A stretch of 37,236 nucleotides of DNA from a virus (taxonomy: Duplodnaviria; Heunggongvirae; Uroviricota; Caudoviricetes). The position numbers and the translations under genes are program-made. This document shows positions 1 to 30,607 of the stretch, one piece after another; position 1 is the first letter of the stretch; each line of letters begins with the position of its first letter. The stretch lies in IMG/VR virus record IMGVR_UViG_2778261175_000003. The stretch is one strand, 5' to 3'. Under the pieces are notes generated by a model, which worked only from the letters and a program-made list of their open reading frames with translations, was not told the origin of the DNA and did no database searches.

Positions 1-141
1 TTACTGCTTACACTGTAAGAACGCCGCAAACTCCGCTCCCCAGAATCTCATCCGTATTTCGCACAGCGAACCGTGCAACATCCAGATGATGAGGATTGCC
101 GTCACGCAGAACGTGATGGCCGTAAGCGATTTTTGCGACAT
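1..141 (-). CDS. Hok/Gef/PndA-family type I toxin, 46 aa (MSQKSLTAITFCVTAILIIWMLHGSLCEIRMRFWGAEFAAFLQCKQ)
   Basis: Hand translation of the minus strand from ATG (rc of 139-141) to TAA (rc of 1-3). One N-terminal TM helix then SLCEIR...E.AAFL.CK, matching the conserved C-terminal motif of Hok and PndA as recalled. Too short for the ORF track. Confidence 0.65.
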   Translation of the reverse strand: MSQKSLTAITFCVTAILIIWMLHGSLCEIRMRFWGAEFAAFLQCKQ

Positions 142-271
142 AGCACTTGCTCCTTTTCCGGAGAGGCGCTAACCTTTCACTTGTCAAGGTAATGCGGTTA
201 GGGCCTCGGTTAAACAGAAACGTTTTCCGGGGCCTTTCCACATCTGGCCTTCGGGTATTCCCTCCGACCAT
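8..271 (-). CDS. Mok-like overlapping leader frame (87 codons) spanning the hok-like ORF in another frame
   Basis: ORF track entry; starts upstream of and overlaps the toxin ORF in a different frame, as mok does for hok in plasmid R1. No protein similarity recognised; probably regulatory rather than a functional protein. Confidence 0.3.
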   Translation of the reverse strand: MVGGNTRRPDVERPRKTFLFNRGPNRITLTSERLAPLRKRSKCYVAKIAYGHHVLRDGNPHHLDVARFAVRNTDEILGSGVCGVLTV

Positions 272-331
272 CAGCCGAAAGGCACCCGCGCGTAATCTAT
301 CTCTTTTTTGTTACTCCGGCAATTCTGCCTG

Positions 332-592
332 TTAATTTTGAGGTAAGGGCAAACTCATCTGATTGTTTCCTTTGTGTGAAGCTGGCAGTTCATGCCACGG
401 GATACCTTCTGAAGAGTGAGCGCCGGAGGCGTGTTTCGATGTGAATTTATGGAAAGCTTCCAGTGTTGAGAAGCATACACCGCATTCTAGGTTGTTACAT
501 TGGTAATACTTTTGCCGCACGGTGTTTGAATCATTTTCCGGACGACTGGTGCGGATTCGGGCAGATGCGCCACAAAGCGGACAACGGAACAT
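332..592 (-). CDS. ogr: Ogr/Delta-family zinc-finger late transcription activator
   Basis: N-terminus MFRCPLCGASARIRTS...YYQCNNLEC matches the P2 Ogr C4 zinc-finger pattern (CPLC...C..C); location next to D as in P2. Confidence 0.85.
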   Translation of the reverse strand: MFRCPLCGASARIRTSRPENDSNTVRQKYYQCNNLECGVCFSTLEAFHKFTSKHASGAHSSEGIPWHELPASHKGNNQMSLPLPQN

Positions 593-802
593 AGCGACCT
601 CCCTTACTGTGGTGCTTCCGCTATTCTAAGTTGTACTGATACAGATTCCAATTAACAGCTTGTCTTGTGTGAAAAGTGGAAGTTCACAATTGTGATAGCC
701 ATTACTAACGTTGTGATGTATTAGTCAACGGGAAACAAGGCATCTGTAACATATCTATGGATATGTTATATTATTGTTGCCATAGGAAAAACCCGCTTTA
801 AA
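593..802. promoter_or_regulatory. AT-rich divergent intergenic region between ogr and the hxs cassette with two palindromes (TCACAATTGTGA at 684-695; ACATATC-N4-GATATGT at 749-766)
   Basis: Perfect inverted repeats read directly from the sequence; the second lies about 37 bp upstream of the first hxs start. Function as operator or promoter is inferred. Confidence 0.3.
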
Positions 803-1117
803 GTGGTTGCTGATCATGAATATTTGTATTGGAAGATAATTGCAATGAGCGAAAGAGTGTTTGAGAAAGAACTATATTCTGAATGGGTTATACGCAATAG
901 TCTATATTGGATGACTCCGCTTACTCGATGGAAACTCCATGAAGACGTTTCCCACTGGATAATCTCTTTTGAAAACGATAATCCCAAATTCCTTTATGAA
1001 TTCGATAGGCTGCTTAATGATTACTCTTTGCGAGAAAAGCTACAGCATAAAACAGGGGCGTTGAGAGACTCTATTGTCCATAAAGTGCTTCGCAGTGTTG
1101 ATGAGAGGCTTTCATAA
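803..1117 (+). CDS. hxsD: Small protein at the head of the Hxs cassette, HxsD-like by position
   Basis: ORF track (GTG start at 803; alternative ATG at 845). Stop overlaps the start of the next gene (TAATGG). Assignment by operon context only. Confidence 0.45.
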   Translation: MVADHEYLYWKIIAMSERVFEKELYSEWVIRNSLYWMTPLTRWKLHEDVSHWIISFENDNPKFLYEFDRLLNDYSLREKLQHKTGALRDSIVHKVLRSVDERLS

Positions 1118-2505
1118 TGGAATTGATGCCATTTAATTTTGACAGATTGCCTAATGGACAGGTGTTTATAAGCAACCTTGCAGGTTTTCATCATTTCATT
1201 GGTGAGCAAGACCTTATTGATCTTTCTGATGAGCGAATTAGTTCGGAGCAATCAAACGTGCTAGAAAGTAAGCTTTTCATAACCAGTGAAAGCTCATCTG
1301 CTATAACTCCCTATGCTTTAAGTTCTGCTTTTGCAAAACGATTGATGAATGAACTGGCTGTCAGGCCAATTTTCATGATTGTACCCACATTACGTTGTGA
1401 CCATACATGCAAGTATTGCCAGGTTAGTAGAGCTTCTGTTAATGCCTCAGGTTACGACCTAAATCCTGAGCTCATCCCCGATATTATTTCGGCTATTAAA
1501 AAACTATCAACGCCACCTTACAAAATAGAGATACAGGGTGGGGAGCCTCTCTTGCGGTTTGATTTAATTCAGAACATCTATGATCAATGTGCTGAAACGC
1601 TGGGAAGAACCAATTTTGAGATGGTGGTGGCATCAAGTCTGTCTGTCTTGAATGAGGATATGATTGAATGGTCGAGAGACCGGAACATAACGTTCTCTGT
1701 GTCGCTTGATGGTGAGGAAGTTGTTCACAACAGTAATCGAATTCTTGGTCGTGGGCTTGCGTACAGTAGAACAGTGTCAGGGGTAGAGGCTATCAAACAC
1801 TCTTTAGGTGCTGGCCGCGTTGCAACGGTTACTACAGTTACTAAAGAGCTTATCAGACGTCCTGAATCGATTGTTCAGGCTCACTTGTCTCTTGGGCTCA
1901 AGGACATGTTTATCCGACCTGTTAGTCCCTATGGGTTTGCACAAAAAGCTTCTTTCACCTTTTCTATGGACGAATACTTCAGCTTCTATGCCTCGTTGAT
2001 AGATGAAATCCTTAAGATTAATAATGAAGGGATAAGGGTTGTGGAACATTCGGCCTCCATTCATCTGAAAAGGATCTTCAATCCCGGTTTTAGTGGCTAT
2101 GCGGATTTAAAGTCTCCAAGTGGAGTCGTGCTTAACAGTATTCTTTTCAATTATGACGGTCGAGTATATGGTAGCGATGAGAGCCGTATGTTGCAGAAGG
2201 TGAATCCTGAAACGGAGTTCAGTGCGGGTGAAGTTAAGACGCTATCATTTTCTGATAGTCCTTACTATAACGCAGTATTGACTTCATCGTTCAATTTTGC
2301 TCTGCCAGGTTGTGATACATGTGCATATCAACCATTTTGTGGTTCAGATCCATGCCAGAACATAAGTGTACAGGGTGAGCCTGTCGGCGATAGGAGTCGT
2401 TCAACGTTTTGTCAATATCACAAGGGGATGTTCAGGTATCTGATGAACTGCATCTCAGAGGGTGGTTCGAAGGCTGAGATGCTAAAAGGATGGGCATATG
2501 TCTGA
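1117..2505 (+). CDS. hxsB: Radical SAM/SPASM-type maturase, HxsB-like (462 aa)
   Basis: CxxxCxxC motif (CDHTCKYC) about 95 aa from the N-terminus, C-terminal Cys cluster (CDTCAYQPFCGSDPCQ) typical of SPASM/twitch domains; GGEPLL motif; translationally coupled to neighbours. B versus C naming is by size and order, from memory of the TIGRFAMs Hxs families. Confidence 0.75.
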   Translation: MELMPFNFDRLPNGQVFISNLAGFHHFIGEQDLIDLSDERISSEQSNVLESKLFITSESSSAITPYALSSAFAKRLMNELAVRPIFMIVPTLRCDHTCKYCQVSRASVNASGYDLNPELIPDIISAIKKLSTPPYKIEIQGGEPLLRFDLIQNIYDQCAETLGRTNFEMVVASSLSVLNEDMIEWSRDRNITFSVSLDGEEVVHNSNRILGRGLAYSRTVSGVEAIKHSLGAGRVATVTTVTKELIRRPESIVQAHLSLGLKDMFIRPVSPYGFAQKASFTFSMDEYFSFYASLIDEILKINNEGIRVVEHSASIHLKRIFNPGFSGYADLKSPSGVVLNSILFNYDGRVYGSDESRMLQKVNPETEFSAGEVKTLSFSDSPYYNAVLTSSFNFALPGCDTCAYQPFCGSDPCQNISVQGEPVGDRSRSTFCQYHKGMFRYLMNCISEGGSKAEMLKGWAYV

Positions 2506-3610
2506 GGTTATCAGGAACGATATCTTTCATTTTGCTTCTACAGAGAACGTGCCCACGGGGTTCTATCGGTTATGCAAACAAAAACCAGTGAACCCTTTAT
2601 TCTTTTTGCCCAATTTGCTAGTAGTTGCTGAGGGCAATAATGATGCCATTCCACCATGCTTTGATTTCTCTGTTATTAGCACTGAATTATTTGAGTCAAT
2701 TGAAGATGGAGATATTGGGATAATCAACAATGGCAATATGATACGCGTTATTCTGTCACGCAAAGCCAACCATAATACTGTCTTAGTTACGGAACGCTGC
2801 AATAACTTGTGTCTGTTTTGTTCGCAGCCACCAAAGAAAATAAATGATGACTGGCTACTTACCCAATCAGCTCTTGCTATAGCTTCATTTGGCTTGAACG
2901 GAGTTGTTGGGGTCAGCGGTGGTGAACCTTTGCTATATGGGGATGACTTCCTTCACTTCATTGATTTTATCATCGAGAATTCACCAGATACTGCTTTACA
3001 TGTTTTAACAAACGGACGCAAATTTGCTGATACCAACTTTACACAGGAAATGGCAAAGCGAAGCAAAAAGATCAAAATCACCTTTGGTATCCCGCTCTAC
3101 TCATCAAGACCACTTGTGCATGATCATCTGGTAGGGAGTGATGGCGCATTTAATGAAACGGTTAAAGGGTTAATCAATGCAGGAAACTTGGGGATTAATA
3201 TCGAACTTAGAGTTATTCCTACACTGGCTAACTATACCGAATTGGATGATATCGTAGAATTCGCTGGCCGTGTGTTCTCCAACATCAATCAGATTTCCCT
3301 TATGGGGTTGGAGCCTATCGGTTGGGCACGAAAAAACTGGTCCACCATCTTCATTGATCACAGTAGTTATAGTGAGAAAATAATCTCTGCCATAGACGCT
3401 GCATACAGGTCAGGCATACCTCTGACAATTTTTAATTATCCTTTGTGTTATCTTCCTGAAAGGGCTAGGGAGCTTGCTGTTCAGTCGATCTCTGATTGGA
3501 AAAATTACTATCCAAAAGAATGTGATGAATGTACTCAGAAGCCTTCCTGTGCTGGCTATTTCAGTTCCTCAAAAGGCCGTTTTCATCAATCACCGAGACC
3601 AATTTTATGA
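2498..3610 (+). CDS. hxsC: Second radical SAM/SPASM-type maturase, HxsC-like (370 aa)
   Basis: CxxxCxxC (CNNLCLFC), GGEPLL motif, C-terminal Cys cluster (CDECTQKPSC). Start ATGTCTGA overlaps the hxsB stop; its stop overlaps the hxsA start (ATGA). Confidence 0.75.
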   Translation: MSEVIRNDIFHFASTENVPTGFYRLCKQKPVNPLFFLPNLLVVAEGNNDAIPPCFDFSVISTELFESIEDGDIGIINNGNMIRVILSRKANHNTVLVTERCNNLCLFCSQPPKKINDDWLLTQSALAIASFGLNGVVGVSGGEPLLYGDDFLHFIDFIIENSPDTALHVLTNGRKFADTNFTQEMAKRSKKIKITFGIPLYSSRPLVHDHLVGSDGAFNETVKGLINAGNLGINIELRVIPTLANYTELDDIVEFAGRVFSNINQISLMGLEPIGWARKNWSTIFIDHSSYSEKIISAIDAAYRSGIPLTIFNYPLCYLPERARELAVQSISDWKNYYPKECDECTQKPSCAGYFSSSKGRFHQSPRPIL

Positions 3611-4242
3611 AAAAGTTTAATTTTGCTGCTCTACTTCCGGGATTTTTGGCTCTCAACAATTCTGTATGGGCAAGCGATTCATCTACAGGAGCGAGTGATT
3701 TACCTGGTATGACTCTTAATGAGCATGATTTAGTGATAGCTCCACTTAACACGGAAGTCCCATTTTATATCGCAGGGCATCGAAGCCATAGTTCTCATAG
3801 GAGCCATAGCTCTCATAGATCCTCATCAGGTGGTGGATACTATGGTGGAAGTACCCCCTATTATCCAAAAACATACAGCTCACCAAGTTCATCTGGTTCT
3901 TCAAGTTCAGGTGCAAGTTCCTCATCGTCCTCTTCCTCGGTGCGTGCACTTCGTTCTAACGATAATAATAGAACCACTAACACGAGTTCTGTTGGAACTT
4001 CAGAGGTTAACCGTACGAGTAATGGGCTTGCTTCTGATGCAGAGAAACGTAAGCGATTGATTATGCGAGTTCAGTTCGCATTGCTGGACAGGGGATTTTA
4101 TAACGGAAATATTGACGGCATAATGGGGCCATCCACAAGGCTGTCTGTGAAAAATTACCGCATTGCGAATGGATTACCGATTCCTGCAACTGAAACACTC
4201 GACACACAATTGTTAAATTCTTTGAATATATTAGCTCGCTAA
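3607..4242 (+). CDS. hxsA: His-Xaa-Ser repeat protein HxsA-like: signal peptide, (HxS)x5, Ser-rich linker, C-terminal peptidoglycan-binding-like domain
   Basis: Start taken at MKKFNFAALLPGFLALNNSVWA (ATG 3607) rather than the track start 3529. Contains HRSHSSHRSHSSHRS, a poly-Ser tract and a C-terminal segment (RVQFALLDRGFYNGNIDGIMGPSTRLSVKNYRIANGLP) resembling PG_binding_1 domains. Confidence 0.75.
   Translation: MKKFNFAALLPGFLALNNSVWASDSSTGASDLPGMTLNEHDLVIAPLNTEVPFYIAGHRSHSSHRSHSSHRSSSGGGYYGGSTPYYPKTYSSPSSSGSSSSGASSSSSSSSVRALRSNDNNRTTNTSSVGTSEVNRTSNGLASDAEKRKRLIMRVQFALLDRGFYNGNIDGIMGPSTRLSVKNYRIANGLPIPATETLDTQLLNSLNILAR
3778..3822 (+). repeat. Coding tandem repeat encoding five His-Xaa-Ser units
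   Basis: DNA reads cat-cga-agc-cat-agt-tct-cat-agg-agc-cat-agc-tct-cat-aga-tcc; position derived from codon arithmetic in the hxsA frame. Confidence 0.8.
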
Positions 4243-4406
4243 ATCTCAGTGAGGTATAAATAAAAAGCAATAAATTATATTAGTCGCGCGTCCATTATTG
4301 GTGGGTAAGTTCAAGGACCGTCTGCTCTGTGTCAGGGGCAGATGGTCAGATAAGACTGTGCCGTTTAGCCCGCTAGTACGTGTCTGGACTAATACATTTA
4401 AGAGTC

Positions 4407-5516
4407 TCATTCTGCTATCCATTCCGGGATTTTTGCCTCAAGCTCAAGCTGTGTGGTAAAGCCGCTGTTATCAATGGTGTGCTCGGCTTTTGCAATAATC
4501 CAGTCCTGATTATCAATCTCGCTTTTAAATCCTGTTACCGTGCCATGCATTTCGGGGTAGAGTTCTGCACGCCCACGTGCCAGCGTGATGGAAAATGATG
4601 CGGCTCCGCGTTGTAGCTGCTGCCACTTTGCCGCCGCTGCGCGTCTTGCTGCCTGCTCGTTTTTAAACGTTTTGCGCATGACGTATACATTGCCGTCTGC
4701 GCCCTCCATGTAATCCCCCTCGCGGCTGCTGCTTTTCTCCTTTTTTGTTTTTTGGGCAGAACCACGTTTCGTCACGCTGACTTTTTTCTTTTTGCCATAG
4801 TCCAGGTCCAGCCAGTAAGCGCGTACCCCCGTGTACGCCTGCCGGTCTGCAATGCGGAAGTGATGGCTGTCACCGCTGCTGCGGGTGATGGCGAATGAGG
4901 GCAGCGGCTTTCCGCTGGCGCTCACCCCCTGTCCGGGCACGATGAAAAGCAGTGCGCCGTTCTTGACGGTGGCTATGGCTCCCAGCATGTCTGCCATACG
5001 CGTGAGAAACGAGATGTCACTTTCCTCCGTCTGGTCGGCGTGGTCGATTTCCACCTCTGCCAGCGAGGCGCTGATTTGCGCCTTCAGCCCGTAGCGGTAC
5101 GCGATGGCAGAAACAACCTGCCCCACCGTCACGTCATGCCAGGACACTTCACGCTTCACGTTGAACTCCTGCCGGAAGTCTGCGCTGCTGGCCGTGATGG
5201 TGAGCCTGTCCGGTGGTCCCTCATGTGTCACCTCGTCAACGATGAAGGTTCCTTTGTCCATCAGTGCCTCACCTTTCCAGCCCAGCGCCAGACCCAGCGT
5301 CTGTCCGCGCTTCGGGAGCTGCACGCTGCCGTCGCAGTCGTCAATCGTGAGGGTTAACTGGTCTGCCTCAAATCCCCGGTTGTCGGTCATCGCCAGCGAG
5401 ATGACCCGTCGGGTCAGCGCCGCGTTTTCCGTGCCCTTAACCGTGATGGAAAAATCAGGGATCTTCACGCACTCTGACAGACCGTTCAGGTATCCGCTTA
5501 CGTCCGCAGGGTTCAT
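4407..5516 (-). CDS. D: Tail protein D (late control gene D family)
   Basis: Protein resembles P2 gpD. Start placed at MNPADVSG (ATG at 5514-5516, GGAGA RBS upstream) rather than the track GTG at 5699. Confidence 0.85.
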   Translation of the reverse strand: MNPADVSGYLNGLSECVKIPDFSITVKGTENAALTRRVISLAMTDNRGFEADQLTLTIDDCDGSVQLPKRGQTLGLALGWKGEALMDKGTFIVDEVTHEGPPDRLTITASSADFRQEFNVKREVSWHDVTVGQVVSAIAYRYGLKAQISASLAEVEIDHADQTEESDISFLTRMADMLGAIATVKNGALLFIVPGQGVSASGKPLPSFAITRSSGDSHHFRIADRQAYTGVRAYWLDLDYGKKKKVSVTKRGSAQKTKKEKSSSREGDYMEGADGNVYVMRKTFKNEQAARRAAAAKWQQLQRGAASFSITLARGRAELYPEMHGTVTGFKSEIDNQDWIIAKAEHTIDNSGFTTQLELEAKIPEWIAE

Positions 5517-5588
5517 CGCAATTTCTCCGTCTGTGTCTTCGTACGGCGAAATACTCCCACGCGCACGGAGGCGCTGTAATCCTGCGTA

Positions 5589-5614
5589 TGTTGTCGGAGA
5601 GCGGCGAGAACAGG
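5589..5614 (+). promoter_or_regulatory. Candidate late-promoter activator element TGTTGTCGGAGAGCGGCGAGAACAGG upstream of FI
   Basis: Near-identical 26-nt element recurs upstream of P (24183-24208); each lies about 60-80 bp upstream of a late-gene start and carries TGT...ACA ends reminiscent of the Ogr-dependent P2 late promoter motif. Spacing differs from the canonical TGT-N12-ACA. Confidence 0.4.
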
Positions 5615-5678
5615 CAGCGCGTGAATGCGGGGCTGTTTTTCGGGAGGATGTCGCCACACAAAACACCAGGAGGTGCTC

Positions 5679-6860
5679 ATGAGTGAAACACGCTTTCACG
5701 GTGCACGCGTCAAAGAAAACACCGACCTCGTGACCGCGATTAATGACATTGATTCCAGTGTCATCGGTATCGTGGCCACGGCGGACGATGCAGACAGCGA
5801 CGCGTTCCCGTTAAACAAGCCCGTATTGATCACCCGCGTGGCGAATGTGCTGGGTAAGGCAGGCACAACAGGCACGCTGTACAAAACGCTCAAGGCGATT
5901 TCCGACCAGACCAGCCCGAAGGTTATCGTGGTGCGTGTGGCAGAAGCCGGAGAGGAAGGTGAGACACAGGATCAGCTTGTCATTGGTGGCTCGCAGGCTG
6001 ACGGCAGCTACACGGGCATGTATGCCCTGCTGGTTGCTGAACAGGACGAGAGCATTGGTTACCGCCCGCGCATTCTGGCGGCTCCCGGCCTGGATACCGA
6101 AGCAGTCACATCCGCCCTGTGCGTCATTGCGGACAAGCTCCGCGCCTTTGTGTACGCCGGATGTAACGGGTGCGACACGATGGCGGAGGCAATCACTTAC
6201 CGTGCGAAGTTCTCCGCGCGTGAGCTGATGCTGCTGTGGCCTGACTTCATTGCCTACAACCCGGTGAGCGGAAATAACGAAACATTTCCGGCAGCGGCGT
6301 ATGCGTGCGGGTTGCGTGCGCGGATTGACAGTGAACAGGGCTGGCACAAGTCACTGTCCAACGTGGCGCTGAAAAATGTTCTCGGTATGTCGCAGCAGGT
6401 GTTCTGGTCGTTGCAGGCCGAAGACAGTGATGCGAACAACCTGAACAACAAGGAAATCACCACGATTATTCGCCGTAACGGCTTCCGCTTCTGGGGGAAC
6501 CGTACTGCCGAAACCAGCGACTACATCTTTGAGGTGTACACGCGCACAGCGCAGATTCTGGCAGATACCATCGCTGAGGCGCAGTTCGAAACCATTGACG
6601 AACCGCTGACCCCGGCGAACGTGAAGGACGTGATTAGCGCCATCCGCGCAAAACTCAACGCCCTGGTGACGGCCGGGAAACTCATCGGTGCGGAGTGCTG
6701 GTATGACGTGCTGGACAACGGCACGACGGATTTGCGTCAGGGGCGCGTGCGCATCCGTTATAAGTACACGCCAGTGCCGCCGATGGAAGATCTGACGCTG
6801 TATCAGACCTTCACGGATGAGTATTTCGACTCCGCTTTTGCAACGCTGGGAGGTGCGTAA
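5679..6860 (+). CDS. FI: Contractile tail sheath protein
   Basis: Strong similarity to P2 gpFI (e.g. FPLNKPVLIT, ELMLLWPDF, RRNGFRFWGNRT, YKYTPVPPMEDLTL). Start at ATG 5679 with AGGAGG RBS. Confidence 0.9.
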   Translation: MSETRFHGARVKENTDLVTAINDIDSSVIGIVATADDADSDAFPLNKPVLITRVANVLGKAGTTGTLYKTLKAISDQTSPKVIVVRVAEAGEEGETQDQLVIGGSQADGSYTGMYALLVAEQDESIGYRPRILAAPGLDTEAVTSALCVIADKLRAFVYAGCNGCDTMAEAITYRAKFSARELMLLWPDFIAYNPVSGNNETFPAAAYACGLRARIDSEQGWHKSLSNVALKNVLGMSQQVFWSLQAEDSDANNLNNKEITTIIRRNGFRFWGNRTAETSDYIFEVYTRTAQILADTIAEAQFETIDEPLTPANVKDVISAIRAKLNALVTAGKLIGAECWYDVLDNGTTDLRQGRVRIRYKYTPVPPMEDLTLYQTFTDEYFDSAFATLGGA

Positions 6861-12262: not shown

Positions 12263-12963
12263 AAGGAATGTTTGCATGTGTATAACACTGCGGGATTATA
12301 AATAAATTACGCGTTCTGTAAAATCCCCTTTGATGGAGATTCAGGCCATACCAGCGCATTATAACAATCTTCGTCCTTCACGGAAGTGAAAGTCACCTGC
12401 TGAAGTTCTTTAATGTATTCAATTCACGCAGCCAACCTTCCTTTGTCTTGATCGCTGATGGTGCCGGGCAATAACTCAGATTGCCAGATTCTGATCCTCT
12501 CTTTTGCCTCCGGCAGCAGGGGATTTCGTTGTCATTCTGCTTTAGCCTGCCACTTTTCAGGTGGCAGCACATGACGAACAATATTTTCATCATCAAATAT
12601 CCAGTTACCTGAGTCATCAGCACGTTGGTTAGCGTTAATATCAGAAGTATTAACAACACTAAAACCGACATGATTAAGTGTTGATGCCTCTCTGGTAATG
12701 GTGACAATAATATTATTTCGTTGTAAATCATTTTGATTTTATCTGGTCGAAAGGTCCCTGCATCGTTATGCCGGTTTTTATTTCCTTCAGAGGAAATATG
12801 ATTACTTTGTGCTTCTTTTTTAACACATACAGTCTGGAGTTAATGTTGCCTGTTTTATGTTCTTGAGTGCGTCATATTAATCTCTTACATATTATATCTG
12901 GTACAATTTATAGTTTTCTGAAGCTTGCCTGAAAGAATTGAGTTTCCTGCAGGCTTTCAAGGG

Positions 12964-13062
12964 GGTGATGATGATATGCGGGAGAAACTTCAGCCTGCAT
13001 CTGTGTGGGGAATCACTGAATACGCTTAAAGACAAATCGTCGTCGCTGAACGCATTCCCTTA
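12964..13062 (+). pseudogene. Degraded duplicate of the 3' end of tail gene U
   Basis: About 75 nt align at roughly 85 percent identity (by eye) with the true U 3' end at 11840-11915 (GATGA.GATATG.GGGAGAAACT.CAG.CTGC.TCTG...CTGAA.ACGCTTAAAGACAAA), with a 1-nt deletion breaking the frame. Confidence 0.6.
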
Positions 13063-13108
13063 ACCTGACGCCACCACCTCATACAGATAACGAGGTGGTA
13101 GCGTGATT

Positions 13109-13402
13109 TCACCAGTAACTAACCGACAGCCAGAACAACAGGCATGTTGCCACCGGTACAGCAAAATCCATCAGGCTTCCGGCATCCCACACGCGCGGAT
13201 CAAAACCACCCCACCATGGCATGTTAATTCGTTTCCCTTTCCCGAATTTTTCAATCCAGCGATATTCTGCCTGGGTGTGTTCACGTGCAATGAAGAACGT
13301 ACAGCCAGCTACCGCACCATAAGTCCAGTTTCCGGTGAAAAGCCCGGCCAGAAGCTGAGCAGCCACAGCACAAAGTGCATGAAGCAAGGGGCTTATATCC
13401 AT
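13109..13402 (-). CDS. Hypothetical small membrane protein (97 aa, two hydrophobic segments) downstream of the tail-fibre module
   Basis: ORF track; hydrophobic N- and C-terminal stretches; no family recognised. The antisense 13103-13756 ORF is judged a shadow. Confidence 0.4.
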   Translation of the reverse strand: MDISPLLHALCAVAAQLLAGLFTGNWTYGAVAGCTFFIAREHTQAEYRWIEKFGKGKRINMPWWGGFDPRVWDAGSLMDFAVPVATCLLFWLSVSYW

Positions 13403-13414
13403 TGTTTTCTCCCT

Positions 13415-13693
13415 TCAGCTCCATTCCCGAAGCGGTGTTTCCAGCTCCACCACATAATCAGAGAACACAGAAATATCAAACGCATCATCAAGAATGCGGA
13501 TGTTGACAAAATAACCGTCATTCCGGATACAGACAGCTTCCCCCTCTTCAGTTACCCCTGTTTCTGTGTAGGTGAAACCAATTTCATTGACCAGAAGTTT
13601 GTTCTGGAGGTCTTCGTTTTCCTCCCAGTCAAGAGACGACAGGAATGCTTTAAACTGCTGTTTATCATGAAATTTCAGGGTCAGATCTTTCAT
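13415..13693 (-). CDS. Hypothetical acidic protein (92 aa) translationally coupled to H; possible tail-fibre accessory/assembly factor
   Basis: ATGA overlap with the H stop; occupies the position of P2 gene G but no sequence similarity recognised. Confidence 0.4.
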   Translation of the reverse strand: MKDLTLKFHDKQQFKAFLSSLDWEENEDLQNKLLVNEIGFTYTETGVTEEGEAVCIRNDGYFVNIRILDDAFDISVFSDYVVELETPLREWS

Positions 13694-15456
13694 ACCGCCT
13701 CCTTGATTTGTCTGTCGTTTAATTCTTTATGCCATAGGCGGAAATTACGAATATGACCAAACAAATGACGCGTTCCTGCTGCTGTCTGCCCACCAAAGCG
13801 GCATAAATTTGCTGTAACACCAAATGTTTTCCCTTCAGCGGTTACCGCATAATTACCATTGCATATTGCATTTATCGCCAGGTCGGCTCCTGCCCTCAGC
13901 CCCATAATGAATTTATCTCCATCGGCGAGGATTTTTGCGTTGATCATTCCCACTCCAGCAACTATTGTTCCCGCCGAGGAAAAATTAAGCGACATATAAT
14001 CGTTATCAATGCTGTATCCTCCGGTGTCAAATACCCTTGGCGCAATATTGGGGGGAGTATTCCAGTTTTTGTTCACTTCGCACAATACGGTAAAAGGTCG
14101 TGCTGACAGGTTATTTTTCGCAGGGATTGTTACCACATCACTGGCTCTTGTCGTTGCGCTGGCTCCCGAAACAATAAATGATGATACACAAGCACCATCC
14201 TCAACTTGTGGAGTAGCAAGATAAATATAATCACCGGATGCAATTGTTCCACCCCATTTAGGTGAACACTGGATCTGAGAGCCTATTTTTAACTCACCCT
14301 CAATTGCCTCAATTGTTGCCTCGGCAAAAATCCAGCCAGTAGTCTCATCTTTTCTGGCTCTGGCTGAAATTCTGTCTGAGGCATCTCCGGTCGTATTAAT
14401 TTCAAACGTCTGTGTATCAATGTACGCATCACCAAGAAAAGTTGTTGCACTGCCGTCATATTTATCAAACCGGATGCGGAGCCTTAGCTGTAATTCTGTT
14501 TTAAATCGGCATGAGGTTGTCACGTACTTGTTATCGCCAGAGACATCAACCGCCTCTGTTGCAGCAACTGATGCCATATTTACAGCGGAGGTCTGCCCAA
14601 TCAGAGAATCGTTGCAGACAAACTTCCCATAAGTAAAACCAAAACTATCCGTCCCGGTTTCGGGTACATCCATACTTACTGACTTGCCCCAGTTGGCCGG
14701 GGTTTCCGAATTGAGCATGTAGTTTGTTCTTTGCCCTTCAATCAGCAGACCTTCGCGCTCAAATCGTGGCTCATTAATTTCCGCCGTTTTCAGTTCACCC
14801 GATTTATTGATATAGGTTGCCGTTGATGCGCGCGTGAAACTAACCTGTTTATCACTGGCAACCTGAACCACATCATCACCAATGGTGATTTTTTTATAGC
14901 CCGGAGCGAACCCCGTAAGCATATCCAGTGAATCGTTAAACGGTATCCATACATCAGGCAGCGGCGGTACAGAGTCCTTTTCCTGTGCAACATATTCTTC
15001 AACATAGGCGCGGGTGGCGAGCACGACAGAGGGATCAACTTTCAGCTCGACGGATGAAGCACTGGAAACCACAACAATCATGCGAATTGTCTGCGTGCGC
15101 CCGCTTCCCTCGGCGAGTACGGGCTTGTAGGTTTCGGGGCAGTTCGCCACGGCAATCATCACGCCGTCGCTGTCAAAAAGCCCAATCTCGCGGATCCAGA
15201 ACCCCCCTTTGTCTTCCGGGATAATCATCTCGGCGACAAGCTGGCTGGCATCGGACGCGCTGACGCTCAGTTGATTCAACGGGGCGCTGTATACCGTGTT
15301 CACCAGCTTTTCCATGGACGCCGCCGGTTCCGGCAGGCTGCCGCCGCCATCTCCCAGTTTCATGGTGGTGATGGATATTTTTGAGCCGCTGGCCACCGCC
15401 TTTGCCAGACGGGCAGCACCTTTGTCAGTCAGAACAGAAAAATATTTTACAGTCAT
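13690..15456 (-). CDS. H: Tail fibre protein with P2 H-like N-terminus and a divergent, LamG/ConA-like C-terminal receptor-binding region
   Basis: N-terminal about 150 aa closely match P2 gpH (MT.K...V.T..GAA.LA.A...G.K..ITTM..GDGGG.LP.P...). C-terminus ends GHIRNFRLWHKELNDRQIKEAV, a pattern recalled from LamG-type jellyroll domains. Confidence 0.8.
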   Translation of the reverse strand: MTVKYFSVLTDKGAARLAKAVASGSKISITTMKLGDGGGSLPEPAASMEKLVNTVYSAPLNQLSVSASDASQLVAEMIIPEDKGGFWIREIGLFDSDGVMIAVANCPETYKPVLAEGSGRTQTIRMIVVVSSASSVELKVDPSVVLATRAYVEEYVAQEKDSVPPLPDVWIPFNDSLDMLTGFAPGYKKITIGDDVVQVASDKQVSFTRASTATYINKSGELKTAEINEPRFEREGLLIEGQRTNYMLNSETPANWGKSVSMDVPETGTDSFGFTYGKFVCNDSLIGQTSAVNMASVAATEAVDVSGDNKYVTTSCRFKTELQLRLRIRFDKYDGSATTFLGDAYIDTQTFEINTTGDASDRISARARKDETTGWIFAEATIEAIEGELKIGSQIQCSPKWGGTIASGDYIYLATPQVEDGACVSSFIVSGASATTRASDVVTIPAKNNLSARPFTVLCEVNKNWNTPPNIAPRVFDTGGYSIDNDYMSLNFSSAGTIVAGVGMINAKILADGDKFIMGLRAGADLAINAICNGNYAVTAEGKTFGVTANLCRFGGQTAAGTRHLFGHIRNFRLWHKELNDRQIKEAV

Positions 15457-27506: not shown

Positions 27507-28124
27507 CTAATTATCTTCTGTCTCCTGCCACGAGACTTTTCCGCCAGCCTTTATGATGGCTCGTTCAACATCTCTTTCGTACCGCAAAGGCTGGAATACT
27601 CCGTTAATGAAATACTCCTTTGGGTTCGGGATCTGCACTGTAAATGTGCCACGCTCTGATGTTGGGCGACGCACCTCTTTCTCAAAAGAAAGCGAGTTGT
27701 TATGCATTAACGCAGCATACTTTAGTGCATCCTGTGCTTTCTGAAATTTCAGTGCGTAGTCAGTAGCGATCTCTTCCAGTGCTGCGATGCGCTTACTTCC
27801 ATCCGCGATAACACCTTCGAAATACTCACGCTGCTCGTTGAGTTTTAATTTTACCGACTCCAGTTGTTTTGTTAGTTCTGCAATACGGCAAACATCGTTG
27901 ATACGCGTTTCTTCTAATGCGTTGCTCTCATCCAGTAGCGTCAGCACGGTTTCTGGTCCGGCCAGAAATTTGAAGGCGTTGAGCGCATCAATATCAACAC
28001 CGCTATCTTTAAGTTCCTGTTCGCTTATCAGATCATCATCAACTGGCAACATTAACAGGCGGTCCATTGCCGGAATTGCACGCTCTGCCGCCTCACGCAG
28101 TGCCTGATAGTCAATCTTGCTCAT
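27507..28124 (-). CDS. Coiled-coil protein of unknown function, possibly Ead/Ea22-like
   Basis: N-terminus MSKIDYQALREAAERA resembles the conserved N-terminus I recall for Ead/Ea22-like prophage proteins; ATGA-coupled to the upstream gene. Confidence 0.4.
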   Translation of the reverse strand: MSKIDYQALREAAERAIPAMDRLLMLPVDDDLISEQELKDSGVDIDALNAFKFLAGPETVLTLLDESNALEETRINDVCRIAELTKQLESVKLKLNEQREYFEGVIADGSKRIAALEEIATDYALKFQKAQDALKYAALMHNNSLSFEKEVRRPTSERGTFTVQIPNPKEYFINGVFQPLRYERDVERAIIKAGGKVSWQETEDN

Positions 28125-28711
28125 GGGATAACTCCTTTGTGTTGCGTCAGCTCTTCCTGCGCCTGCATCATGCGATTGACCAGAACGTGCGTGCGTCGAA
28201 CGGAAAAAACAAACAGATTCAAAAGGCGGCGCATCTCTTTGTCCTCATGTCGCGCATGACGGAGAAAGGCAAGTCGGTAGAACTCGGATTCGGCAGCGCG
28301 TTGAATCAACGACAGATCAAAGTGAAGTGCTGGTCTGGTGCATTTTGCGCATCTGGCGGCAAGCTCTGGCATCAATCTCTTAACGAAGGTGTTTTGTACT
28401 GCTTTGTTGAGTTGTGTCTGCATCCAAATCGCAAATTTCAGCGAACGCATGAGCCGGATCGCGTCGGGCAACGGCAGATAGATCATGCTGGCGGTTTTGG
28501 GTAGCGGATGAATCATTTTCACGGAGACGCGATCGCGCAGTGTTCGAAAAATCGTGTTCCCGACAACAGACTCCACGGAGACAGGGCAGGGGGCCAGACC
28601 AACCCGCAACGCGTTCGTCATGAACAGATATTCATCTTTTTTCATCGTGTTTTCCTTAGTGCGGGGGCGACAGTGCGCCCCGATAAAATTAAAAGCCGTC
28701 AAATTCGTCAT
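28121..28711 (-). CDS. Hypothetical protein (174-196 aa depending on start)
   Basis: ORF track; alternative start at MKKDEYLF (28645) with AAGGAAA RBS; no family recognised. Confidence 0.4.
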   Translation of the reverse strand: MTNLTAFNFIGAHCRPRTKENTMKKDEYLFMTNALRVGLAPCPVSVESVVGNTIFRTLRDRVSVKMIHPLPKTASMIYLPLPDAIRLMRSLKFAIWMQTQLNKAVQNTFVKRLMPELAARCAKCTRPALHFDLSLIQRAAESEFYRLAFLRHARHEDKEMRRLLNLFVFSVRRTHVLVNRMMQAQEELTQHKGVIP

Positions 28712-29044
28712 TCATCTTCCTGCTCCCTGCGTTCCTTGTTCTTCTCGGATAACGCTGTTGCACACTTCCACACACTCGTCGCAGATGAAAACGTCGTCCC
28801 CGGAAAATAACTTTTTGACGGCGTGCTGTGGTTTCTTGCAGAAGCTGCAATAAAGCGTTCGCCTGACAGATACGGACGATGTGTAGGATGCCAGCCTCGT
28901 GATGTCGTCCTTGCGACGCAACATCACACGGCAGCACTCAACCAGTTTTTCCGGGGGGATTTCTTCCTCTGTGGCGAGCGCCTCCAGTCGTTCTATCAGA
29001 TGGAGTGCTTTTTCCGGGGGCATTGCAGAATATGCTGTGGTCAT
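28712..29044 (-). CDS. Small protein with C-terminal ClpX-type C4 zinc-binding domain (110 aa)
   Basis: C-terminus [39 protein letters not shown] closely matches the ClpX N-terminal zinc-binding domain ([39 protein letters not shown], from memory). No AAA+ module follows. Confidence 0.7.
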
Positions 29045-29056
29045 CTTCTTTCTCCT

Positions 29057-29257
29057 TCAAAGTTCAGTGTGTTGACAGAGCTGCCCTTTGCGACAGACCA
29101 GTACGCTCCCTTTGCTTGAGTCGGTGATTGTCACCGTGCCGTCATCGCACTGGACAGCGATGACTGTGTTGCTCTTTTCCGTTGTGCAGTTCGGTGTGGC
29201 CGAGTGCGCCAACGGAACGAAAAACAGCGAAAAAAGTAATGTCAGTCTTTTCGTCAT
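29057..29257 (-). CDS. Small secreted protein (66 aa) with signal peptide and four Cys
   Basis: Start at MTKRLTLLFSLFFVPLAHSA with AGGAGG RBS; mature part about 45 aa. Confidence 0.5.
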   Translation of the reverse strand: MTKRLTLLFSLFFVPLAHSATPNCTTEKSNTVIAVQCDDGTVTITDSSKGSVLVCRKGQLCQHTEL

Positions 29258-29332
29258 GGCTACCTCCTGCTTCCTGTTTCTGAGGCATGGCGCACCAGAT
29301 AAAAACTGTCCGCCATGCCTTATCACGTTGCC

Positions 29333-29644
29333 TTATTCTGGGAATAACGCCCTGATGTTTGCGGCCATCTGGCTGGTTGTCTGAGCCTCTGGCGCAGCCT
29401 GTGTTTTGGTTTTTTCTGCACTGACCTGTGTCACGGGTAATGGCTCATCGTCAGCCCATGCAGCCAGCCGGTAAGCCTCTGCCGGATTCTTCTTCAGAAG
29501 CGCCAGTCCGGCCAGAAAAGCCACACGCTGGCCGCTTTTGCGGGCTTCTGGTGTAAGGCTGTCCAGCCAGGCACATGCTTCGCTTTCGTTCTTGACTGCC
29601 GCAGGCTTCAGATAGAAACTTATCCGTCTGGTTGATGTCGTCAT
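29333..29644 (-). CDS. parR: ParR/StbB-like partition adaptor
   Basis: Pattern RRISFYLKP....LDSL.PE.R...RVAFLAGLAL parallels R1 ParR (RRTIAFKLNP....LDSIPQGERSRLNRAALTAGLAL); sits directly downstream of the parM-like gene. Confidence 0.7.
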   Translation of the reverse strand: MTTSTRRISFYLKPAAVKNESEACAWLDSLTPEARKSGQRVAFLAGLALLKKNPAEAYRLAAWADDEPLPVTQVSAEKTKTQAAPEAQTTSQMAANIRALFPE

Positions 29645-29647
29645 GAT

Positions 29648-30607
29648 CTATTCCCTGTTCATGGCGTGGAGACCATTAACCAGAGCAAACTGTGGCACCC
29701 CGTCCGCGATAAAAGTCGCATTAACTCCGCAGGCTTCGCGGACAGCGGGTGCCACAATCTCCGCCCCTCCACCGACAACCATCACCCGCCCGTAACCCGA
29801 AAAGCTCGCCAGCGCGCGGAGTACACGTTGTTTCAGTGTTTCTTCCTTTTCACGAATAACCGCCATCAGGCTGTTGTAATGTGCGTCATTGTGGATGTGC
29901 TGGCGCAGCCAGGCTTCATCATGGCGATGTTCGATAATGGTATTGGCGATGTGGTGACTGGTGCGCATACCGTTAGTGGCCATCACCGACAGTACGGCAT
30001 CGGCCATCAGAGAAACGCCTACGTGTGGATCGCAAAACACCTGGCTGATACCTGCCAGTTGTCCCTGAACCTTTGCCACATCCAGCGTGGTTCCGCCTAA
30101 ATCCACAATCAGCAGGGATTCAAACGGACTCATGTCAGCCAGCGCCTTAAAGCCAGCCGGAATGGATTCAGGCATAACCCGCACGTTACGGATAGTGAAT
30201 GCTTCGCCGTTCTGGTACTCCACCGGGCGCATAACGTTCGCTTTTTTGCGGTTGATGTTGGTCATATCCGGCTGGGCGTTTGTATCGAAATACTCGCTCA
30301 GTGGCAGGGTGACAACCACATCCACCTCCTGTGGTGTGATGCCTGATTTGACCAGCGCGTGATGAATGGCAATGACATTCACATCGCTGTACTGGTATTG
30401 CGTGTCGGTCGTCTGGACAAAGCGATCGCTGACCGGATCAAAACCATAGCGCACGCCATCAAGCATGTAGTTCGCGGGCTGCGTGCCACCGAACGGTGCA
30501 GACCATTCCGACTTGAAGCTGTTCGGGCTGATGGCGTTGCGGCGTTCGCCGTTCTCAGTCCAGGCCAGCTTGATGTTGGTGGAGCCGTCGTCGATACAAA
30601 TTTTCAT
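29648..30607 (-). CDS. parM: ParM/StbA-like actin-family segregation ATPase
   Basis: N-terminus MKICIDDGSTNIKLAW and internal motifs (YSDVNVIAIHHAL, MPESIPAG, LIVDLGGTTLD, MVVGGGAE) match plasmid R1 ParM as recalled. Confidence 0.85.
   Translation of the reverse strand: MKICIDDGSTNIKLAWTENGERRNAISPNSFKSEWSAPFGGTQPANYMLDGVRYGFDPVSDRFVQTTDTQYQYSDVNVIAIHHALVKSGITPQEVDVVVTLPLSEYFDTNAQPDMTNINRKKANVMRPVEYQNGEAFTIRNVRVMPESIPAGFKALADMSPFESLLIVDLGGTTLDVAKVQGQLAGISQVFCDPHVGVSLMADAVLSVMATNGMRTSHHIANTIIEHRHDEAWLRQHIHNDAHYNSLMAVIREKEETLKQRVLRALASFSGYGRVMVVGGGAEIVAPAVREACGVNATFIADGVPQFALVNGLHAMNRE

Follow-up and report, generated by a model that had tools for sequence, protein, structure and literature searches.

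The DNA analysed here is a 37,236-nt stretch of a Caudoviricetes genome, IMG/VR virus record IMGVR_UViG_2778261175_000003 (hereafter the window), in which positions 845-4242 of the plus strand carry a complete and intact His-Xaa-Ser (HXS) cassette, hxsD-hxsB-hxsC-hxsA, located between the phage genes ogr and D (Table 1). The initial annotation, made from the letters of the sequence alone, had assigned all four genes to the Hxs families. This was confirmed by a hidden Markov model (HMM) search with NCBIfam TIGRFAM equivalog models, in which each protein scored above the curated cut-off of its family, with E-values from 6e-26 to 1e-167 that rule out chance matches. The gene order D-B-C-A is that of 99.6% of HXS systems, and all four open reading frames (ORFs) lie on one strand with overlapping junctions of 1 nt between hxsD and hxsB (TAATG), 8 nt between hxsB and hxsC (ATGTCTGA) and 4 nt between hxsC and hxsA (ATGA), an arrangement that fits the translational coupling proposed at the outset. 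The start of the cassette had to be moved, as position 803, from which it had been drawn, is the GTG start of the longest ORF; in the RefSeq annotation of copies sharing 99.9% identity, hxsD starts at ATG 845 (90 aa) and hxsA at ATG 3607 (211 aa) rather than at the longest-ORF start, 3529. The local Pfam copy gave no match for HxsD, and a newer label, PF27806:HxsD, appears in precomputed annotations.

Both predicted maturases, HxsB and HxsC, show the CxxxCxxC motif of radical S-adenosylmethionine (SAM) enzymes, at C94/C98/C101 and C101/C105/C108, respectively. HxsB also has a C-terminal cluster, C399/C402/C408/C413/C432/C445, with the pattern CX2CX5CX4C plus further cysteines, whereas the second cluster of HxsC (C342/C345/C351) amounts only to CX2CX5C. 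HxsB could be aligned nearly end to end with SPASM maturase families (10-319/330 for PapB and 9-355/363 for anSME), with scores far below the cut-offs, and the Pfam SPASM domain was not found in HxsB or HxsC at E<0.01. The label “SPASM-type”, first given to both enzymes, is thus plausible for HxsB on its Cys pattern and full-length family alignments and unproven for HxsC. The nearest solved chains were CteB (5wgg, E 8e-6) for HxsB and SkfB (6efn, E 6e-4) for HxsC; the search of solved structures returned no close structure for any Hxs protein, CteB, SkfB and SleB all being distant, and nothing for HxsD. HxsA begins with a predicted Sec-type signal peptide, read from the sequence by inspection (residues 1-22, MKKFNFAALLPGFLALNNSVWA, followed by SD), and continues with five contiguous HxS repeats at 58-72 (HRSHSSHRSHSSHRS), SHRSS at 69-73, a Ser-rich linker and a predicted C-terminal peptidoglycan-binding domain (about 152-217), to which the corresponding domain of SleB was matched (6tci, E 0.0018). 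The signal peptide and the peptidoglycan-binding domain agree with the published description of HxsA (PMC13128918), and residues 1-100 are nearly invariant across the E. coli classes of the cassette described below.

The position between ogr and D was upheld by the Pfam matches of the two flanking genes (PF04606 and PF05954). In phage P2, D and ogr are only 81 bp apart and the spacer contains the ogr promoter. A survey of this junction showed that ogr lies about 50 bp from D in prophages of Escherichia coli strains 135, 2-1 and no107, with a backbone 88-91% identical to the window over 4410-6500, and that the junction is also empty in six public loci encoding a sheath protein 100% identical to that of the window. 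The cassette is therefore cargo, as first suggested, and the possibility that it belongs to the conserved structural core of the phage lineage is ruled out. Homology with the empty-site phages starts at position 4410, which sets the right edge of the slot at about 4409/4410, and since homology stops at 651-684 on the left and resumes at 4410 on the right, the variable segment covers approximately 685-4409. The GC content of the cassette is about 0.41, against about 0.57 for the phage, with values of 0.37-0.45 over 600-4400 and 0.55-0.62 beyond 4600.

Further along the window are genes for a P2-type GPA replication protein and a CI-like helix-turn-helix repressor, and an integrase gene ending at the last base; with these and the two flanks present, the window is, judged by gene content, a whole P2-family (Peduoviridae) prophage. 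Among classified phages, its relatives belong to Xuanwuvirus and Gemsvirus, members of the Peduoviridae, and the relatives have homologues of P2 GpU/GpE. The description of the phage as P2-like thus holds at the family level (GPA, Ogr, Peduoviridae relatives) but not for gene order, as the sheath-tube-tape-measure operon is divergent from D, unlike in P2.

The survey was extended to 80 IMG/VR loci encoding relatives of D (L009-L088), in which the D-ogr gap was measured. The junction was empty (45-62 bp) in 47 loci, contained cargo in 27 and was unresolved in six, so that cargo occupied 27 of the 74 resolved junctions, with lengths of 0.7-4.05 kb and a GC content of 0.32-0.42. At least 18 cargo types were distinguished, including recognised defence genes, namely Thoeris ThsA+ThsB, Shedu SduA, SIR2+HerA, bSEFIR and a PifA-like KAP NTPase, along with GmrSD-like, PIN and SEC-C proteins; HXS was itself among them, in L069 and partly in L080. 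The deposited phages 500465-2 and 520873 have other cargo at the same place, encoding proteins of 340 aa and 132 aa, respectively, the former being weakly HEPN-like, below the Pfam gathering score. Since the slot is either empty or filled with many different cargos that include recognised defence genes, the junction is, on this comparison of loci, a defence hotspot with swappable cargo between two conserved phage genes.

Several cargos of the slot gave no PADLOC match. These comprise a 229-aa membrane protein found in five loci, a 500-aa PIN_4 protein in three, a 478-aa protein and a 356-aa PIN_12 protein in two each, and single-locus proteins of 471, 274 and 1039 aa (examples in the survey are L020:9236-9925, L019:3149-4585, L025:9275-10690, L018:8640-9464, L045:3633-6752, L061:9303-10805 and L026:9230-10300). 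Such unannotated cargos are candidate undescribed defence genes, and the junction could be mined for more of them.

The distribution of the cassette region was analysed in 5,426 complete E. coli genomes, of which 156 gave a match. The class sharing at least 99% identity comprised 46 genomes, including O26:H11 str. 11368, all with the ogr and D flanks and located next to ihfA; about 35 genomes fell in a class of 90-95% identity and 58 in a class of 60-80%. The 46 copies at ogr-D are already annotated as hxsD/B/C/A in RefSeq by the Prokaryotic Genome Annotation Pipeline (PGAP). The share of the phage slot (46 of 156 genomes, 29%) is in line with the published value of 23% for E. coli hxs operons that overlap a predicted prophage (PMC13128918). 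All six of the non-phage E. coli contexts inspected were islands with integrase and relaxase genes (integrative mobilizable), four of them at ssrA, and the island copies often stand alongside other defence genes. In five of the six, a 535-543 aa protein of the “sporadically distributed” TIGR04141/DUF6119 family is encoded by a gene that follows hxsA in the same orientation after 18-70 bp (L002:11571-13202, L003:10447-12054, L089:10511-12323, L091:10439-12043 and L092:9447-11054). This gene, which is absent from the phage-borne copy and gave no PADLOC match, may be an accessory component or a defence gene in its own right.

The module comprising promoter and four genes (741-4245) was also present at full length, with approximately 90.8% identity, on 347 PLSDB plasmids, 342 of which are from Klebsiella and 287 of which are predicted to be conjugative; these copies probably explain the high HXS prevalence reported for Klebsiella. 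Among the phage genomes of INPHARED there was no close HxsB, the only matches being Leptospira phage LE1 and a gut contig. The LE1 protein (KF114877.1 80102-81502), annotated hxsB, shares 30.5% aa identity over 99% of HxsB, and LE1 is the only deposited INPHARED phage genome with a full-length HxsB relative.

Closer examination of the identity profile revealed that the window is a mosaic. Over positions 1-4552, it matches the P88-type prophage of the enterotoxigenic E. coli (ETEC) strain ETEC4067 (L001) at 99.9% identity, while 4544-5243 share only about 79% identity with that prophage; from 4410 onward, the window shows 91-96% identity to a second lineage, with an ogr that cannot be aligned by blastn. 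This places a recombination breakpoint near 4552, at the 3' end of D, with the last approximately 145 bp of D derived from the P88-type side. Because identity switches there, the window is, by this profile, a recombinant of two prophage lineages in which ogr and HXS moved together. The same mosaic was found in the public assembly L106 (99.83% over 10.2 kb).

Upstream of hxsD, a promoter scan gave a sigma-70-like candidate, GTAACA-17 nt-TATTAT, at 746-774, and the pattern GTAACAT...TAT..T was kept in six of six aligned upstream regions across classes 75-91% identical. In the lysogen, hxs expression would be driven by this conserved promoter. A perfect 9-bp inverted repeat, TAACATATC/GATATGTTA (747-768), overlaps the predicted -35/-10 spacer in the phage-borne class only, and a palindrome in the 5' untranslated region, CCGCTTTAAAGTGG (793-806), is kept in the window, L002, L089 and L090, that is in the window-type and ~91% classes, and not in L091 or L092. 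Both may be regulatory sites. At the other end of the module, terminator scans 3' of hxsA gave nothing convincing, an inverted-repeat search of 4200-4460 gave none, and no Rfam family matched within the window at gathering thresholds.

When the cassette was first noted, the Hxs families were held to have no known function and the locus was ranked as the strongest candidate in the window for an undescribed system. Both statements are out of date, the HXS defence having been described in a January 2026 preprint and by Li et al. in Nature Communications in March 2026 (PMC13128918); the phage-exclusion role that had been guessed for the cassette has thus since been demonstrated experimentally for the family. 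In that study, hxsDBCA from E. coli MEM (CP012378), cloned with its native promoter, was active and restricted 110 of 113 coliphages, mostly by at least 10^3-fold, the exceptions being T4, another Tequatrovirus and P1; defence required all four genes (PMC13128918). There was no abortive-infection collapse and adsorption was unaltered, while entry of T7 DNA was slowed from about 10 min to 30-50 min, a block or delay of DNA entry being shown for T7 and one other phage, and T7 escape mutations fell in the ejectosome proteins gp15 and gp16 (PMC13128918). HxsA is described there as a periplasmic, peptidoglycan-binding effector whose signal peptide and peptidoglycan-binding domain are essential. Its N-terminal cleavage depends on each of HxsB, HxsC and HxsD, and HxsC binds HxsD, in which the motifs LYW and LLNDYxLRE are both required for HxsA processing and defence (PMC13128918). 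A change of +8 Da on HxsA was mapped to SHRSS in peptide 48-78, and periplasmic HxsA shifted DNA in vitro (PMC13128918).

The published loss-of-function residues are nearly all present in the window proteins at the same number, in a comparison that leaves out the substitutions in the peptidoglycan-binding domain, which are unspecified in PMC13128918. Specifically, the numbering is shared for C98/C101/C399/C402 of HxsB and C105/C108/C342/C345 of HxsC, and HxsA has in common the predicted signal peptide (residues 1-22), five HxS repeats, SHRSS and a 48-78 segment with Y78 at its end. The LYW and LLNDYxLRE motifs of HxsD are numbered 2 lower in the window than in PMC13128918, and an in-frame ATG lies two codons further upstream in hxsD genes of the island type. 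Overall, the MEM system has the same four families, D-B-C-A order and Cys and motif residues as the window, and its HxsA architecture is that predicted for the window protein; the MEM system differs in its HxsA of 214 aa (211 aa in the window), in the +2 numbering of HxsD and in being presented as chromosomal, whereas the window copy is prophage cargo.

On this evidence, the cassette is very probably a functional member of the HXS anti-phage systems, carried as self-promoted cargo in the D-ogr hotspot of a Peduoviridae prophage and giving the lysogen broad protection against superinfecting phages. Membership of the system is supported by the equivalog scores, the gene order and the conservation of motifs, while defence, maturation and delayed DNA entry are ascribed to it by analogy with the homologue, and the lysogen would be expected to benefit. 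In the mechanism proposed here, transcription of the module would start at its own conserved promoter and run antisense to the late genes of the phage. In the cytoplasm, HxsB and HxsC, with the HxsD adaptor bound to HxsC, would process the HxsA precursor both by N-terminal cleavage within residues 23-47 and by the +8 Da covalent change on the last HxS repeat, SHRSS, as in the homologue. Mature HxsA would then be exported via its signal peptide and anchored on the cell wall by its C-terminal domain, and in the periplasm the five basic HxS repeats would, as in the homologue, delay or block the translocation of incoming phage DNA without cell death; electrostatic capture of DNA by these repeats is the least secure step. 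Recombination through ogr and D, on either side of the cassette, probably brought it into this phage.

Regarding the chemistry of maturation, HxsB shows weak similarity to cyclophane-forming maturases in NCBIfam, and the +8 Da change was reported as +C-4H, unlike the -2 Da of a simple cross-link (PMC13128918). One methylene bridge and two -2H cross-links would add up to +C-4H, which is arithmetic only and not evidence.

Several observations weigh against this interpretation. The MEM operon tested is probably of the island/plasmid class, given that its +2 HxsD numbering matches the island-type upstream ATG, and its proteins would then be 80-94% identical to those of the window. The PG_binding_1 score of HxsA is 22.0 bits, 1 bit under the Pfam gathering threshold of 23, the promoter at 746-774 is a consensus-level match only and no commoner than in shuffled sequence, and insertion sequence (IS) elements lie inside the cassette in at least six of the 46 E. 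coli copies, which is thus not always maintained. PADLOC v2.0.0 gave only weak viperin-type radical SAM matches; as this library dates from 2023, before the 2026 paper, and contains no model for HXS, the result was set aside as evidence either way. The support for the DNA-binding mechanism is a gel shift in vitro, and alternatives to it are listed by the authors (PMC13128918).

This last point bears on a reading in which the cassette is likewise an anti-phage system but HxsA acts by disturbing the trans-envelope ejection channel or the interface of cell wall and inner membrane rather than by binding DNA, a possibility of some weight, albeit clearly less probable than the interpretation above. 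On its way through the periplasm, phage DNA is normally enclosed in a protein conduit, HxsA is attached to peptidoglycan, and the T7 escape mutations lie in gp15/gp16 and not in DNA features; channel blockade or an infection-triggered conformational change is among the alternatives listed by the authors (PMC13128918). Pull-downs nevertheless gave no interaction of HxsA with gp15/gp16, periplasmic HxsA shifted DNA in vitro (PMC13128918), and the very broad host range speaks against the recognition of specific proteins. That the cassette is a silent or decaying passenger, unexpressed or of no benefit in this prophage, appears unlikely. The IS elements in hxsB or hxsC, a frameshifted hxsC in one island copy, the defective state of many carrier prophages with ISCro1 in D and the consensus-level promoter evidence would suit it, but the four hxs ORFs of the window are intact, none of the catalytic and motif residues is missing, and the cassette is 99.5-99.9% conserved over 46 genomes, against only about 80-96% identity for the phage DNA on its flanks. 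The exact HxsA protein is moreover found in 3285 blocks of the public assembly collection, the promoter is kept across the classes 75-91% identical, and the published clone, with the native promoter, was active (PMC13128918).

The IS elements interrupting the cassette are IS2/IS3, ISVsa5 and IS600, in hxsB or hxsC. In many porcine ETEC strains, ISCro1 (IS66 family) is inserted in gene D of a defective prophage with an intact HXS cassette (IS-bearing examples are genomes H59-H63, H66, H68 and H82-H97, L001:11984-14599 and L105).

It would be more surprising still if the cassette made a modified His/Ser-rich product akin to a RiPP (a peptide synthesized ribosomally and then modified post-translationally) for host physiology, such as metal binding or envelope remodelling, as a form of lysogenic conversion unrelated to defence. 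The original bioinformatic view of Hxs was indeed of paired radical SAM peptide maturases (PMC9062424), His-rich repeats can bind metals and HxsB is weakly similar to PapB, CteB and cyclophane synthases; set against these are the direct experimental evidence of defence with all four genes required (PMC13128918), the recognised defence genes otherwise filling the slot, and a substrate that is a 211-aa wall-anchored protein instead of a short secreted peptide.

A bolder form of the defence interpretation, which is speculative and for which only a low probability is claimed, is that phage-borne HXS is a broad superinfection-exclusion weapon that spares its own carrier lineage, with D-ogr as an uncatalogued hotspot holding new defence candidates. 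T4, a second Tequatrovirus and P1, the only phages escaping HXS in the published panel, are contractile-tailed, as are P2-family phages. At least ten D-ogr cargo families without a PADLOC match are counted under this reading, including the 229-aa transmembrane protein, proteins of 478, 471, 274, 1039, 188/134 and 148 aa, the 132-aa protein of L008, PIN-domain proteins and others. If it were true, the module would selectively remove the competitors of the prophage, contradicting the framing of HXS as “intrinsic bacterial” and distinct from phage superinfection exclusion (Sie).

The HXS system, its defence role, its requirement for four genes and its occasional location in prophages are already known from the 2026 work, so that the present addition is a modest one and concerns the hotspot context and the mobile-element framing, not the cassette itself. 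Li et al. present HXS as “typically chromosomally encoded” and “intrinsic bacterial”, distinct from phage Sie (PMC13128918). The first of these descriptions understates the mobility of HXS, because 347 plasmids carry the module, and approximately 30% of E. coli hxs loci (46 of 156 genomes) are in one specific slot of a P2-family prophage. Given this prophage slot, the integrase/relaxase islands and the conjugative Klebsiella plasmids, HXS is better regarded as a weapon of mobile elements than as a fixed chromosomal trait. The presence of a DNA-entry blocker on a temperate phage and on conjugative plasmids raises the question of which incoming DNA (kin phage, satellites, conjugation) is spared.

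The coordinates of the cassette and of the other features of the window are given in Table 1. The classical gpA-portal (old/tin) hotspot of P2-family phages, here at 27507-30607 on the minus strand, contains partition and stability genes together with an unannotated 196-aa ORF and gave no PADLOC match; the phage may also persist in plasmid form. The segment between tail gene U and the tail-fibre genes (12393-13756), the counterpart of the variable Z/fun-type region in P2-family phages, has a 112-aa ORF on the minus strand and a 217-aa ORF on the plus strand, neither with a Pfam or PADLOC match.

Table 1. Features of the HXS cassette, its slot and other regions of the window.
Feature	Position	Strand	Description and basis
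hok/gef-family toxin gene	1-141	-	46-aa ORF at the prophage edge, outside the cassette; Hok/Gef annotation in 99.9%-identical L001, PF01848 on identical neighbours
ogr, late-gene activator (zinc finger)	332-592	-	Left anchor of slot; PF04606 Ogr_Delta, 52.3 bits vs 26.3; RefSeq annotation
ogr upstream region and left slot edge	593-740		Homology to phages with other cargo (L007, L008) stops at 651-684 (blastn)
5' end of mobile HXS module	741-844	+	Predicted promoter and inverted repeats; homology with island/plasmid copies begins at 741
hxsD	845-1117	+	90-aa predicted adaptor; LYW 20-22, LLNDYSLRE 56-64; TIGR03976, 90.6 bits, cut-off 50 (NCBIfam)
hxsB	1117-2505	+	Predicted radical SAM maturase, 462 aa; TIGR03978, 558.2 bits, cut-off 370 (NCBIfam); PF04055
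hxsC	2498-3610	+	Predicted radical SAM maturase, 370 aa; TIGR03977, 398.4 bits, cut-off 267.9 (NCBIfam); PF04055
hxsA	3607-4242	+	Predicted effector precursor, 211 aa; TIGR03979, 161.1 bits, cut-off 121.65 (NCBIfam)
3' spacer, hxsA to D	4243-4406		In phage-borne copies only; island/plasmid homology ends at 4245
Tail gene D (baseplate hub)	4407-5516	-	Right anchor of slot; PF05954, 63.8 bits; start codon inferred from the 369-aa call in L106
Tail sheath gene	5679-6860	+	Divergent from D; exact 393-aa protein in public assemblies with PF04984/PF17482
Ead/Ea22-like protein	27507-28124	-	gpA-portal hotspot
ClpX-type zinc-finger protein	28712-29044	-	gpA-portal hotspot
StbB-like stability protein	29333-29644	-	gpA-portal hotspot
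ParM/StbA actin-like segregation protein	29648-30607	-	gpA-portal hotspot

Compared with the known hotspots of P2-family phages, old/tin (gpA-portal) and Z/fun (tail genes) (Rousset et al. 2022, PMC9122126; Moura de Sousa et al. 2026 preprint; iLund4u preprint), the D-ogr slot is similarly short (0.7-4 kb), low in GC, rapidly swapped and rich in defence genes, and differs from them by its position; the junction is not named in any of these three reports. The gpA-portal hotspot of the window itself holds a ParM/StbB partition module instead.

Among systems with related enzymes, the RiPP maturases (CteB, PapB and anSME, and three-residue cyclophane synthases such as HaaB/HtkB) share with HXS the CxxxCxxC core and a C-terminal auxiliary Cys cluster as well as action on a ribosomal substrate in which a short motif is repeated, three-residue His-x-x motifs being known cyclophane substrates. 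The scores are nevertheless far under the cut-offs (PapB, 70.7 bits against 340), and the HXS substrate is a full-length exported protein with a +8 Da change, whereas a simple cross-link gives -2 Da. Prokaryotic viperins (pVip) also place a radical SAM enzyme in anti-phage defence and were the sole PADLOC matches, but those to HxsB and HxsC were weak (E ~1e-7; 23-29 bits) and confined to the radical SAM core, with nothing for HxsA or HxsD. A viperin identity was rejected, as NF038283 scored 21.2 bits against a cut-off of 180 with no full-length match, and viperins produce chain-terminating nucleotides, in contrast to HXS, in which the modified product is a protein effector. In its predicted action, phage-borne HXS comes close to the superinfection-exclusion proteins Imm and Sp of T4, which likewise act at the envelope and block DNA delivery by a second phage without killing the cell (PMC13128918). 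Imm and Sp, however, are each one small protein of the membrane or periplasm and act on a narrow range, whereas HXS employs two radical SAM enzymes and an adaptor and acted on 110 of 113 phages.

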